Assembly: GCA_016840085.1 (NCBI GenBank)
Contig: JAEOTA010000052.1
Location: 1-64,000 of the forward strand
DNA from: Promethearchaeota archaeon
GTDB lineage: Archaea; Asgardarchaeota; Lokiarchaeia; Sigyniarchaeales; SOKP01
Length of the DNA stretch: 64,000 nucleotides
Direction of reading: 5' to 3'
The position numbers were made by a program, and so were the translations under genes. The notes under the pieces were generated by a model that searched no databases, was not told the origin of the DNA, and saw only the letters and a list, made by a program, of their open reading frames with translations. This document shows positions 46,885-53,381 of this stretch, piece by piece (within the stretch, counting starts at the first letter, position 1; each line of letters starts with the position of its first letter).

Positions 46885-48384
46885 TTACAATTGAGGAATG
46901 CTATTAAAACTCCAAGTATCTTTAATTCGTAAATTATCTTGTATTAATGGGTTTTGTATTTGAATAATAGGAATTTTTTGTCCTGCGGGAATATAATTTT
47001 TAGCATAGTCAAATGCATCTTCTATTGTTTGATTTTGATTTAAACGATCCCAAAATATATGGAAAAACCAAGAACCAGCAAAACCATCTAAATTATTATT
47101 ATCTCGCCAATACCAAGAGAAAACATCTGTTGTTGATGTTATAAGAATGGAATTGGATATATTATACCAACTTTGTCCTATATCTGAATTTATGTTTAAA
47201 AAATTACCACTAAAACAACTATCGATGTTTATCATCATACGATCACAATCGATCTGTCTAACTAAATTAAAAAATTCGGTTTCAGATATATAGCTATCAT
47301 CTGCTTCAAAATGATATGTAGCATTACCACCACCGGCTATTTTATTCGATCCATGGTCAACCATATAAATTATTAATTGATCTTTTGATTTGATGCTAGA
47401 AGCAAACGATCCTTCGATTGAAACATTTAGTTCTTGTTTGAATCTACTATTATTTACATCATCATCTTCCACATCAATAATAGCTTCTGTTAAATCGTTT
47501 GAGACACCGTCATTCGCATTTATATCAATTATATTATCATTTTTATGATATAACATTAGGAATATATTTTCATCAGAATATCCATGATGCTTCAAGATCC
47601 AATAGACTTGGAGTGCTTGCGCAGGAAATCCATCTGAGTCAATTTTACCTGGAGGTGGAATTGGATTTATAGGATTTGTTACATTAACAGAAATCCATCG
47701 TTCTACTCTAACATCATCAAAAAGCACCATATCAGTACCTGTCATATTGCCCTCAACTGCTAAAACTAAATGTAATTGAGTAATTTCGTTTAAGGTAGAA
47801 TTGTCGACGATGCCTGTTACATTTAGATTAATCCATCCTGTTTTAGTTTCAAAAATCCCCTTTGACCAGTCCGTTCTCACTACACCATTGCTAGAATTTA
47901 ACCACCGTAACCCTATTCTTGCCCCTGGTCCTGGAGGTATTATTGTAGCAGGTGTCATTGGACAACAATTAGTTGTAATATTAACCCAAGCAGAAAGATT
48001 ATAGATAGCAAATTCATATAGTGGATAATATTTCGTCCAATTAAATACATATTCCATATTAACATAGCCGCCCCCGGAATAAGCAATTAATTTTATAACT
48101 CCAGGAGCACCATCATGACCAAGGTCATTATCTATTCCTCCATAACCATTAGTGCAATTTTCCACCCATCGACCTGTCTCACTACTAAAATTTGCATCAG
48201 TTCCTTCATTGAAATCATCCTCTGGTTCACTTTTTTGAAAATCATTCGCACTTGCTATAATAATAGCTTTTCTCGCACTGGGGATTGGTTTTTTACCTGG
48301 TGGAATAAATATTATGAGTATAACAATAACTAAGGCAGCAATCATCACTAAAGCTATAATTGGAATTAATTTCTTTTTATTCAT
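46885..48384 (-). CDS. Membrane-anchored clan CD (C13 legumain/Gpi8-like) peptidase with inserted CBM-like sandwich
   Basis: N-terminal TM; GYSDENIFLM; YMVDHG (His) and IDSCFSG (Cys); insert ending VLFDDVRV. Confidence 0.8.
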   Translation of the reverse strand: MNKKKLIPIIALVMIAALVIVILIIFIPPGKKPIPSARKAIIIASANDFQKSEPEDDFNEGTDANFSSETGRWVENCTNGYGGIDNDLGHDGAPGVIKLIAYSGGGYVNMEYVFNWTKYYPLYEFAIYNLSAWVNITTNCCPMTPATIIPPGPGARIGLRWLNSSNGVVRTDWSKGIFETKTGWINLNVTGIVDNSTLNEITQLHLVLAVEGNMTGTDMVLFDDVRVERWISVNVTNPINPIPPPGKIDSDGFPAQALQVYWILKHHGYSDENIFLMLYHKNDNIIDINANDGVSNDLTEAIIDVEDDDVNNSRFKQELNVSIEGSFASSIKSKDQLIIYMVDHGSNKIAGGGNATYHFEADDSYISETEFFNLVRQIDCDRMMINIDSCFSGNFLNINSDIGQSWYNISNSILITSTTDVFSWYWRDNNNLDGFAGSWFFHIFWDRLNQNQTIEDAFDYAKNYIPAGQKIPIIQIQNPLIQDNLRIKDTWSFNSIPQL

Positions 48385-48622
48385 ACAATAACACAAAAAT
48401 GTATAGTAAATTTCTTAATTAAGCATTAAGTTTGCTAACTTTTTAAATATATCTCCTAAAATTAAAGATGAATCTAGATAAATAATTAAAAAAAGTTAAA
48501 ATAGATATAATTTCACTATGCTCCTATTAATTCACTTAAATTTAGTAGCAATAGTGTAATTAACTAATTAAATAGTAGTAAAATATAATATTATAAAAAA
48601 AAGTGAAATTATTTTATTTATT

Positions 48623-50032
48623 CTATATTGCTCGGCCTATTATTGCTATAATATCTTCGTGTGTGGGTTCTTCAAGAACCTCTAATAAATCATACTCATT
48701 AATCATCTCAAGAATTCCTAATACTTGCAATTCGTGATTATACAAATCATTCGCATCAGATAGATTTCTCCAACAGAATGGGCATTCGGTTGTTAAAATA
48801 TCGGCATTTACAGCATTGGCTTCGTCACATCTTAAACTAGAGGTTCTCAGAGAAAAGTCTGGATATCCTGCACGAACTCCCCCTCCCGCACCACAACACA
48901 TTGAATCCATCTTAATACGATACATCTCAACAAATTTTATTCCAACATCTTCTTCAAGTTTTCTAAGAATTACTCTCGGCTTATCATACCATACTTCTAT
49001 TTGTTGTTTAACTTTCCTCATGTCAATCATTAAGTTCTTAGATTTTTCAATCATCCTTTGCTCCATATCGAGGCCGAAATGTCTACCTGTGTGGCAGGGA
49101 TCATGATAAGTCACTACCTTCCCTTTTAATTCCTTATTTGGTTTAAATTTAATTTTTTCTTTCACAATTAATTCAGATATCATTTCGAATGCATGTTTAG
49201 TTTTAAAGGGAAGTTCATCTTCTTCTATCCATTTGGGATAATCTACTAAAAAGGTTCTATAACATCCCGCACAAGAGAAAAATACCATGTCAAAGTCTTT
49301 AAAATTTTCAAGATTTTTCTTCATTAGATCTTTAGCTGTTGTTACAGAACCAATTCTAAAGAATGGGCTTCCACAACATACCTCATCATTAACTAAAGTA
49401 AAATCTATCCCTAATTTTTCGAAAATTCTACATGTCGCGATAGCTATATTAGTTTGGCGATAACTTGCGGTACATCCAACATAATAGGCATATTTGGCCC
49501 CTTTTTTATCAATATATTTCTCTAATCCCGCATCTTTAGCCCATTTAAATCGTTCTTCTGCTTTCCCACCATAAGGATTATTTAACTCTTTCACTAATTT
49601 ATCTACGTATTGATGCCTTTCTATCATTGGAACACCAGATTCACTACATGCTGCTCTTAAGGATTCAATTATATCCACTGTGCGAACTTTGCTTTCACAT
49701 TGGGCAGCACATTGACCACATGTAATGCAAGGCATGAAAACATCTCTTACTTCCTCTGAGAATTCTAAGTCATCATTAAGAATGGAACGCGCAATCCACA
49801 TCTTTCCAGCATTCCAAAACGCTTCCCATCCATATTCTATACCCGCTGGACAAGCTTCAACCATTCCTTCATATAAAAACGTTCTATTCGTTTTACCCTT
49901 CCATTCACCAACTCCGTCTCTACTTGGTTCACCAGAATAAGCAAATTTACAAGCTTTACAATGAATACAGCGGTATATATCTTTTTTTAATTCTTCTAAT
50001 CTTTTCATTCCTGTAATATTTTTTATAGACAT
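48623..50032 (-). CDS. HdrD/GlpC-like Fe-S oxidoreductase (2 CCG domains)
   Basis: CIHCKAC..CP, CITCGQC, YYVGC..CCGSP..CAGC, YHDPCH..CCGAGGG..CPFC. Confidence 0.92.
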   Translation of the reverse strand: MSIKNITGMKRLEELKKDIYRCIHCKACKFAYSGEPSRDGVGEWKGKTNRTFLYEGMVEACPAGIEYGWEAFWNAGKMWIARSILNDDLEFSEEVRDVFMPCITCGQCAAQCESKVRTVDIIESLRAACSESGVPMIERHQYVDKLVKELNNPYGGKAEERFKWAKDAGLEKYIDKKGAKYAYYVGCTASYRQTNIAIATCRIFEKLGIDFTLVNDEVCCGSPFFRIGSVTTAKDLMKKNLENFKDFDMVFFSCAGCYRTFLVDYPKWIEEDELPFKTKHAFEMISELIVKEKIKFKPNKELKGKVVTYHDPCHTGRHFGLDMEQRMIEKSKNLMIDMRKVKQQIEVWYDKPRVILRKLEEDVGIKFVEMYRIKMDSMCCGAGGGVRAGYPDFSLRTSSLRCDEANAVNADILTTECPFCWRNLSDANDLYNHELQVLGILEMINEYDLLEVLEEPTHEDIIAIIGRAI

Positions 50033-50055: not shown

Positions 50056-51572
50056 TTATGGAAGGGCAAGCCTCCCAGGATGTAAAATTCCATTTGGATC
50101 AACCAGTTTCTTAATTGCTCGTAAATATTTCCAGTACATTCCAGATTGATAATAAGCTTTAATGTGAATGTATGGATCTGGTCGATAATTCAACCATCCT
50201 TGTTTCAAACCATACTCAGTAGTCTCTCTATTCAATTCTTGAACTCTTTCGATTTCTTCTGTCTTTGTGCTATCAAAGCAAATGATAGGCATACAAATTG
50301 CTTGTCTACCACGCTCAATTGAAGCAACCCACATCGTGGGGGGAAAACCATATTTTTCCATTGCGTTACAATATACTTCACAGAAATGGGCACATTCTGG
50401 CCATGGAGTGTACCATGTAATAAATAGAAAACCGGCATCCCAGAAACTATAAGGAACAGCAATTTTGTTCGGCTTTTTTAATCTGCTTGCGATTTGTTTT
50501 GGATGGAGCTTCTGAGGTTTTATTGAATCAGGGTCTTTAGCTCTATTCTTTTTGTAATCTTTTGCCATTTCATCAATTCTATTTGTAACATAGTCTAATT
50601 CTTCCTGTGTTTGAGCCCAGCATTCAAAATTCATCCACCATTTCGAAATACCTATTTCTTCATAGAATTTATAATCGAGAGGTATTTTATCCTTTGGCCA
50701 TCGAGTCATTACTAGTTGATAATTGCCCCCTTGGACCATTACACAATGATGGGAAATCCCAAATTCTTGCTTTTGGATTTCTAATGTTAAATTCTGCATG
50801 TCATAGGGATTTGACATGCCCCATACAACTATTGTTTTAAATTCGGGATGTGGATAAATCTTTACAACCACTTTTGTGATTACCCCCATGGTCCCTTGAC
50901 TGCCCATTAAAAACGACCATATATCAGGACCAATTCCATATTTGTAGAATGGTTTCGCAGTTGGTAATGCCCAAGAACCAGTCCTTAAAACATCGCCATT
51001 TGGAAACACAACTTCAGCGCACATAAAATTGTCACCTTGTGGTCCCACACTTGAAGTGTATAATGAAAATCCTCTATCAATAGCATCACCCATAACTGTA
51101 GAGGCTGGTGGAGCTCCATCTGGTATTGGTGGTGCCCAATCAGGATGATTTTTATGCATATATGCCCAGAGTTCTCCTATGGTAACTCCCGGTTCGACGA
51201 CACAAAACCGATTTTCTTCATCGATTTCAATAATTCTATCCATTCTTCCTAAATCAAGAAGAACTCCTCCAGGTTTGATCGTTGGACACGAAAAACCGCC
51301 AGATAATCCACCAGAGACAGGACTTACAGCTATTTTTTCTTGAGTACAATATACTAAAATCTTACGAATCTCTTCAACATATTTGGGGCGAACGACGATA
51401 TCAGGGATTTGGCTCTTTAGTCATAATCCGCTTTGGGATAATGGATTTCTAAACCCATCACTGATTTCGCCAGGTAAGATGCTGTAATCGCTTTGTTATT
51501 TGAAGCGTATTCCTTGCCGACGATGCCTATCATGGCCTCCAGATCTTTTTCATCCGGTAATTTGTAGCTCAT
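50056..51572 (-). CDS. FAD-binding oxidoreductase (GlcD/D-lactate dehydrogenase-like); two exons 51572-51447 and 51414-50056, 494 aa
   Basis: Exon 1 MSYKLP..IVGKEYASN..MGLE joins SQIPDIVVRP..GGVLLDLGRMDRI..VEPGVT..GSQGTMGVIT..DPNGILHPG once 32 nt are removed. Confidence 0.9.
51415..51446 (-). other. Bulge-helix-bulge intron in mRNA (32 nt)
   Basis: GGU-UUAG-AA^A-[UCCAUUAUCC CAAAGC GGAUUAUGA]-CUAA-AG^A-GCC: perfect 4-bp central helix, two 3-nt bulges, cuts restore the frame. Confidence 0.88.
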
Positions 51573-51962: not shown

Positions 51963-53381
51963 TTATTTTATTAATTTTAATCGCTTTTTAAACAGTATTA
52001 TTGAAACTAGGCCAACTACGCCGATCACTATATATATTGAGTATCCTGGAATTGCACCATCACTGGGTTCTTCCTCCTCTTCTTCCTCTTCCCCTACTTC
52101 TGCAGGTGATTCAATCTCAAAATAATCACTAAAAGTGTATGTAGAAGGATAAGAAGCATCAGAGATTTTTATCCGATATTGATCAGAATTATTGAGATCT
52201 GTTGGTATATCCCAAGTGTAAGAGCCATCGTTAGATGTACTTGCAATGATTCCCAACATAAACCCACCGTTCTTATAGAGTTCGATTTTTACGTTTGTAA
52301 TGGTACCTGTCGAGGTCCAAGTAATATTTTGAGAAGTACCTGTCTCCCATACAGATAGGCTATTAGGAATAGTGACTTTTATAGACTCAGGAGTGAATAT
52401 CTCAAAATAGGAGCTGAAATCGTAGGTGTCGGGATTCGCAACATCACTGATTTTTATCTGATATAGAGTAGAATCCACAAGGGTTGTAGGTATTAACCAA
52501 GAAAAATCACCATCATTAGGTATGCTTGCCACAATTTCCATAACAAATATATCATTCTCATATAATTCTATTTTGACATCAGAAATACTACCTGTTGATA
52601 TCCAGTTAATGGGATGAGAACTATCTGTTTCCCAAGAACTCGTAATATCAGGTGTATTAACAGTGAGAGAATCAGGATAAGTAAATAATATTGAAAAATC
52701 ATCAGTTAAATCGTTTAAGCCTTGATATGAATTATAATAATTTGTATCCACCCCTAAATTTAACCCACAAGTATATCCATTATCGAGATCCATATAATCA
52801 AGGTAATCGTAATTAAAAATGATACTTCCATTCTCATATAAAACCAGTTCAAATGATCCGAGTAAATATCCATGATAATGATCTACATTTAACCACTCCG
52901 CCACCCAATAAGTACCAAAAGATTGTACATAGATACTTCCACTGCCACCTGCATAAGCAATTCTTACATCATCCCAAAATGGAGCAATTACATAATGAAA
53001 CTTTGGATCTGCTAGAGGGAATTGTAAATTATTCCATTCCTCAGGATATTGATAAGTAAAACTAAAATATCCATTTGTACATAAATATATTTTAGAAAAT
53101 GTTTGATCATAAAAGGAAAAAGAAAATGGTAAAACTATTTCTTTCCAATGGTCTGTACTTAAAAGTAACTCCTCTCCACCAGAAGCATCTATCCAATTAT
53201 AGGGAGCTCCAAGAGTCATAGTATAATTGAAAATAGGCAAAGTATTAATTTTTACTCTATTCTCTTGAATTGAAATATCACTAGGATTAATTTCAATAAG
53301 TCTATTAGGAGTAAATAAACTTAGACAAAGCAGAAGAATAGTTGCTAAAATTACATAATCTATTTTTCTTACATTTTTCAT
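51963..53381 (-). CDS. Surface protein: nidogen-like domain + two Ser/Thr-rich Kre9/Knh1-like Ig domains + Loki-CTERM-like tail
   Basis: LPFSFSFY..TNGY..IAPFWDD; two INWISTG..VKIELY..NDG..W.IP repeats; poly-Glu linker; IPGY + TM + KKR. Confidence 0.8.
   Translation of the reverse strand: MKNVRKIDYVILATILLLCLSLFTPNRLIEINPSDISIQENRVKINTLPIFNYTMTLGAPYNWIDASGGEELLLSTDHWKEIVLPFSFSFYDQTFSKIYLCTNGYFSFTYQYPEEWNNLQFPLADPKFHYVIAPFWDDVRIAYAGGSGSIYVQSFGTYWVAEWLNVDHYHGYLLGSFELVLYENGSIIFNYDYLDYMDLDNGYTCGLNLGVDTNYYNSYQGLNDLTDDFSILFTYPDSLTVNTPDITSSWETDSSHPINWISTGSISDVKIELYENDIFVMEIVASIPNDGDFSWLIPTTLVDSTLYQIKISDVANPDTYDFSSYFEIFTPESIKVTIPNSLSVWETGTSQNITWTSTGTITNVKIELYKNGGFMLGIIASTSNDGSYTWDIPTDLNNSDQYRIKISDASYPSTYTFSDYFEIESPAEVGEEEEEEEEPSDGAIPGYSIYIVIGVVGLVSIILFKKRLKLIK

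Follow-up and report, generated by a model that had tools for sequence, protein, structure and literature searches.

A candidate bulge-helix-bulge mRNA intron in an FAD-oxidoreductase gene of an Asgard archaeon, with similar inserts in other protein genes

The coding regions of archaea are treated as free of introns except for that of cbf5. In the eukaryotic HAC1/XBP1 system, endonuclease cleavage together with a tRNA ligase excises a short frame-shifting mRNA intron; there the cleavage is made by Ire1 at stem-loops, and not by EndA/TSEN at bulge-helix-bulge (BHB) motifs, and the system is a dedicated stress switch. The ligase RtcB joins the exons of BHB substrates cleaved by the tRNA endonuclease EndA. 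The present analysis concerns a BHB-type insert of 32 nucleotides (nt) in a gene for a flavin adenine dinucleotide (FAD) oxidoreductase, located on the minus strand of a 64,000-nt stretch of DNA (the window) from a Promethearchaeota archaeon (assembly GCA_016840085.1, contig JAEOTA010000052.1). For this insert HAC1/XBP1 is an analogy only, the geometry being that of a BHB and not that of loop cleavage.

The archaeal mRNA introns described in the literature searched are that of cbf5 in a coding region and that of HVO_1309 in a 5′ untranslated region (5′ UTR) (PMC7714728). The cbf5 intron of the Desulfurococcales and Sulfolobales (Watanabe 2002; Yoshinari 2006; Yokobori 2009, PMC2738675) resembles the present one as a short BHB intron of a coding region (16-44 nt in cbf5), cleaved between bulge bases two and three by an EndA that is a hetero-oligomer, with a variable interior and lineage-specific loss, whereas it is confined to one gene and one ancient position, has a mostly relaxed motif and was shown experimentally to be spliced. 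The present intron, known here from DNA alone, lies in a metabolic gene, has the canonical motif and belongs to a gene family with eight insert positions, and the introns of its kind have a narrow size of 28-36 nt, are patchy within the genus and number about 15 further candidates in unrelated genes of one genome. It would function as the cbf5 intron does but, its host being an FAD oxidoreductase, is not a member of the cbf5 family, in which the intron lies at the catalytic Asp codon. The HVO_1309 transcript of Haloferax volcanii is likewise an mRNA substrate of the splicing endonuclease, but there the site is in the 5′ UTR, the enzyme is a euryarchaeal EndA and the reading frame is unbroken (PMC7714728). 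The reported Asgard tRNA introns (PMC11291895; bioRxiv 10.64898/2026.10.13.758758) share the motif, the enzyme, the phylum, repeated independent gains and the lack of a clear arrival route, whereas these reports concern tRNA genes only and the bioRxiv report does not contain the word 'mRNA'. No report of Asgard mRNA introns was found in the literature searched, which did not cover subscription journals. The chemistry is known; the breadth, the narrow size and the ongoing turnover are unreported in that literature.

The oxidoreductase gene very probably contains an mRNA intron spliced by EndA and RtcB, because orthologues contain the exact junction, the central helix shows a compensatory change, both exons are under selection and independent reads agree, and the core claim of an earlier note on this DNA, that this Asgard archaeon splices a metabolic mRNA with EndA and RtcB, is thereby strongly supported. 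The open reading frame (ORF) from ATG 51572 on the minus strand was found to contain 51 sense codons followed by TAA (51419-51417) as codon 52. The insert both shifts the frame and brings in this in-frame stop. The features of the locus, in window coordinates, are as follows.

51447..51572, minus strand: exon 1, codons 1-42 (ATG 51572 to Glu42), contributing two helices at the N-terminus of the FAD-binding domain
51453..51465, minus strand: 5′ arm of the exon-exon outer helix, synonymous sites frozen in intron-bearing alleles
51449..51452, minus strand: 5′ strand UUAG of the central helix (exonic), invariant in 14 alleles, replaced by CUAG in L261 and L266, where the partner strand matches
51446..51448, minus strand: 5′ bulge AA^A, predicted cut 51447/51446, canonical BHB geometry, junction that of the intronless orthologues
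51415..51446, minus strand: putative BHB intron, 32 nt, frame-shifting, including the stop TAA 51419-51417
51421..51445, minus strand: the intron's inner hairpin, paired in 96% of cells, the pair that closes the loop covarying between C-G and A-U
51417..51420, minus strand: 3′ strand CUAA of the central helix (intronic), containing the premature stop
51414..51416, minus strand: 3′ bulge AG^A, predicted cut 51415/51414, middle base G/U/A across alleles
51400..51413, minus strand: 3′ arm of the exon-exon outer helix, pairing with 51453..51465
50056..51414, minus strand: exon 2, codons 43-494 and stop, FAD_binding_4 (PF01565) and cap domains

The junction was found to contain a canonical BHB, with a central helix of 4 base pairs that has a 3-nt bulge at either end, one on each strand. 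The outer exon-exon pairing GGU/GCC was extended by GAU/AUC and AUCAG/CUGAU, giving arms of 13-14 nt with about 11 pairs, and the inner hairpin contained a U.U mismatch in the present allele where 13 other aligned alleles contained U-A. All coordinates claimed earlier for the UUAG/CUAA helix, the two bulges and the GGU/GCC closure hold, and the claimed exact excision of 51446-51415 (32 nt) was reproduced, yielding 494 amino acids with Glu42 joined to Ser43 (MGLE/SQIP); shifting the cut one base downstream leaves the joined RNA unchanged. The 32 nt form a single hairpin, in which neither an internal ORF nor a ribozyme core (homing-endonuclease, group I/II type) was found.

Among 54 genomes of the genus, the 32-nt insert was found in 12 and the uninterrupted junction in 35, and no genome contained both. 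The 27 intronless orthologues examined by alignment contained the exact junction with zero gaps within 10 residues of it, the residues M39-G40-L41-E42 were invariant across 36 homologues, and no orthologue was found to retain extra residues at the site. That the insert is an artefact of assembly, as might be suspected of a metagenome assembly of 89 contigs, has a negligible probability, since the identical 32 nt were found in contigs from four independent sequencing runs, and 11 further genomes as well as several metagenome contigs contained versions with substitutions. The DNA runs SRR14699978, -80, -82 and -83 contain the allele. Contigs L137, L148 and L160, which contain TTAGAA/AGCCAA, were considered as spliced copies and rejected; they belong to lineages of about 81% identity with different flanks and are genomic alleles.

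Further inserts at the same junction were traced from short database proteins with divergent tails after Glu42. Inserts of 31 nt (L260, L263) and 32 nt (L258, L264) were found, together with inserts of unrelated sequence of 31 nt (L261/L262) and 36 nt (L266), the last of which is in frame yet contains a stop. All of them contained 4/4 central pairs in the identical register. The three insert lengths give three frame outcomes under a single predicted excision rule. Translational recoding, by which a -1 frameshift or a ribosome bypass would carry the ribosome past the insert, could draw on the hairpin that adjoins the stop codon and on the coupled translation of archaea; it is nevertheless very improbable, as a TGA inside the insert closes the exon-2 frame, a slippery run and a matched pair of take-off and landing codons are both absent, a frameshift would insert about 10 residues where the orthologues have none, and inserts of 31, 32 and 36 nt would need three frame outcomes although they keep one BHB register.

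Across the 14 aligned alleles, the central helix was 100%, the outer helix 97% and the inner hairpin 96% paired (97% of cells in all), and the substitutions either hit a bulge or loop or preserve pairing; a shuffle test on these alleles is only indicative, the sequences being related. In L261 and L266 the first central U-A pair was replaced by C-G on both sides (CUAG/CUAG), which is a compensatory change, whereas L263 contained the wobble variant CUGA and the L261 variant lacked the outer helix.

The ratio of nonsynonymous to synonymous differences (pN/pS) was found to be 0.08 in exon 1 and 0.12 in exon 2 of intron-bearing alleles, and 0.10 and 0.13 in those of intronless alleles, and no further stops were found in 12 full-length intron-bearing alleles with up to 16% protein divergence. 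Over the 12 codons at the junction, which make up the arms, pS of the intron-bearing alleles was 0.094 vs a median of 0.47, the lowest of 81 codon windows; over the same codons of the intronless alleles it was 0.69 vs 0.71, with no collapse. A pseudogene inactivated by the insert might be read from the frame shift, the stop and the fragments of 51 and 395-450 amino acids listed in databases, but the purifying selection on both exons, the lack of further stops, the absence of an intronless second copy and similar inserts within the essential EF-2 and uS3 genes make this highly unlikely. The same gene calls, a 51-amino-acid ORF and a downstream ORF, would agree with a split gene whose two chains are translated apart and then reassembled. 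The exon-2 frame, however, has no possible ATG/GTG/TTG start before codon 100, so that the beginning of the FAD-binding domain would be lost, the tail of the 51-amino-acid product is not conserved, and the covariation of the BHB is left unexplained; there is hardly any chance that the gene is split in this sense.

The intron state was found to require at least 3-4 changes on the exon-2 tree. All intron-bearing alleles contained an AGY codon at Ser43. The allele of G063 resembled the intron-bearing alleles only near the junction and the intronless alleles of G029 and G012 elsewhere, and the alleles of G020 and G030, with TCN at Ser43, were the reverse mosaic. These mosaic alleles would fit an exchange of short recombination tracts together with gains and losses.

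Several observations weigh against splicing by EndA and RtcB. Recent spread of short tracts by recombination could partly account for the frozen arms. The spliced junction of the intron-bearing clade was not matched in metagenome or genome contigs, a negative of little weight, as these are mostly DNA. The BHB was predicted by ViennaRNA to be populated at only about 10% in the present allele, and the catalytic alpha subunit of EndA is absent from the assembly. The only EndA gene in the assembly (C79:3618-4223; L031:1210-1818) is of the beta type, without the catalytic His. The usual neighbours of the alpha gene (MEMO-like, ATPase) are missing as well, so that a gap in the assembly is the likely reason; two EndA subunits were found in most relatives, with an alpha subunit containing the Tyr/His/Lys triad in six intron-bearing genomes, and the RtcB ligase is present (C83:46555-47862, E value 1e-166). 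An (alpha-beta)2 architecture is reported for the Asgard EndA, whose L1 loop is connected with a broad specificity (PMC5829648).

The 66-nt region was found to fold better than its shuffles (z -2.5). In the minimum-energy fold of ViennaRNA the central helix was open, and the BHB lay 2.1 kcal/mol higher; its population was 2-18% in alleles with an AG bulge, 39-51% in alleles with an AU bulge and 0.55-0.99 for five other introns in the genome. Nearest-neighbour folding models leave the binding of the enzyme out. The low population of the BHB and its competition with a GGUUU/GAGCC fold, together with the long and conserved exon arms, bear on whether the intron doubles as a regulatory switch, in which the marginal BHB against this fold and the ribosomes would gate expression; this would be an addition to splicing and not an alternative to it, and in Haloferax the efficient expression of HVO_1309 seems to owe much to the removal of the intron from its 5′ UTR (PMC7714728). 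Such a switch, which the earlier note had suggested, appears unlikely and is unsupported by the comparison: 35 of the 47 gene-bearing genomes of the genus lack the intron, the same site is filled by unrelated sequences, inserts also occur at seven further positions of the gene and in many unrelated genes, and the competing fold hinges on a base that varies freely between alleles.

Under the splicing reading, the pre-mRNA, whose motif and covariation were observed, would fold into the BHB in the cell, a heteromeric (alpha-beta)2 EndA would cut both 3-nt bulges between their second and third bases, and the exons would be ligated by RtcB with release of the 32 nt. Cleavage after the second base, also in the cbf5 pre-mRNA, was described for EndA (PMC2738675). 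The spliced mRNA would give a flavoprotein of 494 amino acids working with the CCG/Fe-S protein encoded downstream, and the unspliced RNA only a peptide of 51 amino acids. The intron is best regarded as a tolerated, largely neutral passenger from a population of 28-36-nt BHB introns, its shape maintained because the host gene requires its correct removal, and Loki-type archaea would gain, lose and recombine such introns within protein genes.

Seven other positions in the oxidoreductase gene were found to contain inserts of 28-32 nt in the BHB register with 3-4 of 4 central pairs: residues 16, 48, 207 and 233 in G034, residue 234 in G021, and residues 381, 403 and 456 in L160. Without its four inserts the G034 gene gives exactly 494 amino acids. 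The insert at Pro233/234 is common to G034 (L071) and G021 (L072), and one pair of its central helix is mismatched (A.G). With its eight intron positions and with intron-bearing and intronless close relatives, this gene would be a compact case of intron gain and loss.

The earlier note had proposed a scan of the genome for BHB motifs. In three homology-free scans the 3+3 geometry was not in excess over control geometries, and the shape is frequent by chance in a genome of 30% GC, so the case rests on comparative evidence; of the frame-rescuing candidates whose flanks look like coding sequence, the oxidoreductase site was the most stable. A motif-blind census of the present genome (G000) against 2.62 of the 3.34 Mb of genome G006, covering 1,959 orthologous segments, did find gene-breaking BHB inserts: 7 of the 10 gene-breaking inserts of 28-32 nt contained a strict BHB at the junction optimal for the protein, and two more a relaxed one. 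The 14 control geometries gave 0-1 strict BHB and a random register 1.8e-4, and none was found in 30 harmless in-frame inserts or in 11 inserts of other lengths. The candidates are listed below; those whose removal restores a motif are candidates outside the orthologue census.

C4:16302 and 16173, minus strand: two BHB-type inserts of 30-31 nt in EF-2, absent from G006
C85:142161 and 142251, plus strand: two BHB-type inserts of 30-31 nt in uS3, absent from G006
C32:24483, plus strand: BHB-type insert of 30-31 nt, SepSecS, absent from G006
C24:30582, plus strand: BHB-type insert of 30-31 nt, Rab-like GTPase, absent from G006
C6:14028, minus strand: BHB-type insert of 30-31 nt, AMP-binding ligase, absent from G006
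C9:138240, minus strand: BHB-type insert of 30-31 nt, AMP phosphorylase, absent from G006
C49:155064, plus strand: BHB-type insert of 30-31 nt, small zinc ribbon, absent from G006
C49:147258, minus strand: BHB candidate, removal restores the motif, purA P-loop
C4:202483, plus strand: BHB candidate, removal restores the motif, CdhC-like gene
C19:6047, minus strand: BHB candidate, removal restores the motif, ubiquitin-like Gly-Gly
C78:52861, plus strand: BHB candidate, removal restores the motif, E2 C-terminus
C35:36836, minus strand: BHB candidate, removal restores the motif, zinc finger
C69:52816, minus strand: BHB candidate, removal restores the motif
G006 (tiled coordinates) 1129379, plus strand, and 1621977 and 1410049, minus strand: its own BHB inserts of 28, 30 and 30 nt, absent from G000

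The approximately 15 candidates besides the oxidoreductase intron are a lower bound for the genome. In the homology-found introns of G000 the 3′ bulge began with A in 10/10 and the 5′ bulge in 9/10, which suggests a sequence preference. These introns were mutually unrelated save two pairs at 63-67% (against a weak null), and no copy of the oxidoreductase intron was found elsewhere in the genome; an exact match of 16-18 nt to its 3′ end (C69:64035-64050, E value 0.018) coincides with the end of a different gene and probably reflects chance. The genome was found to contain a single reverse transcriptase gene, within an open frame of 487 codons (C74:13766-14365, plus strand). Only 13 tRNAs were found by ARAGORN in the whole of G000, most with odd introns, which suggests that its tRNA genes are heavily interrupted.

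More broadly, routine non-spliceosomal mRNA splicing in Loki-type Asgard archaea is likely: tens of protein genes per genome would carry BHB introns of about 30 nt, essential genes included (EF-2, uS3, SepSecS, purA, ubiquitin-system), the introns would still be gained, lost and exchanged, the tRNA endonuclease would serve mRNA splicing in general, and many Asgard genes that look 'split' would be intact. If this is true, many mRNAs are already spliced in the closest prokaryotic kin of eukaryotes, with neither a spliceosome nor a nucleus, a finding relevant to the invasion of genes by introns and to splicing versus coupled translation, and Asgard annotations hold false fragments (here 51 and 395/450 amino acids) that affect gene inventories. 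In protein databases the locus was found annotated as a 51-amino-acid 'hypothetical' protein and truncated proteins of 395-450 amino acids in many assemblies, including Loki_b32, and the relatives in its protein cluster are annotated as Promethearchaeota/Lokiarchaeota.

The product belongs to the VAO/PCMH-type FAD oxidoreductases, with PF01565 and a weak PF02913, and matches p-cresol methylhydroxylase, vanillyl-alcohol oxidase, D-lactate dehydrogenase and LctD. The alignment with solved relatives begins at residue 8-15. In an alignment-based AlphaFold model of an intronless orthologue, with a predicted local distance difference test score (pLDDT) of 76.8, exon 1 contained helices at 8-18 and 27-36 with a pLDDT of about 90, and the junction was a low-confidence loop, neutral on the question of insertion. 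The gene is followed by the presence of its partner gene:

48623..50032, minus strand: downstream partner gene, 469 amino acids, 4Fe-4S dicluster and two CCG domains, GlcF/HdrD-like

The two genes probably form one operon, and the CCG/4Fe-4S neighbour is common to L258, L259 and L266. The pairing of a PF01565 flavoprotein with a CCG/Fe-S partner resembles the GlcD/GlcF and D-lactate dehydrogenase systems; the protein was not found to be a GlcD (TIGR00387), its orthologue P0004 scoring 77 bits, far below the cut-off of 568. Among the neighbours in the window, 46885-48396 (minus strand) was found to contain a protein with a peptidase C13 (legumain/GPI-transamidase-like) domain and 51963-53381 (minus strand) a Kre9/KNH Ig-like membrane protein.
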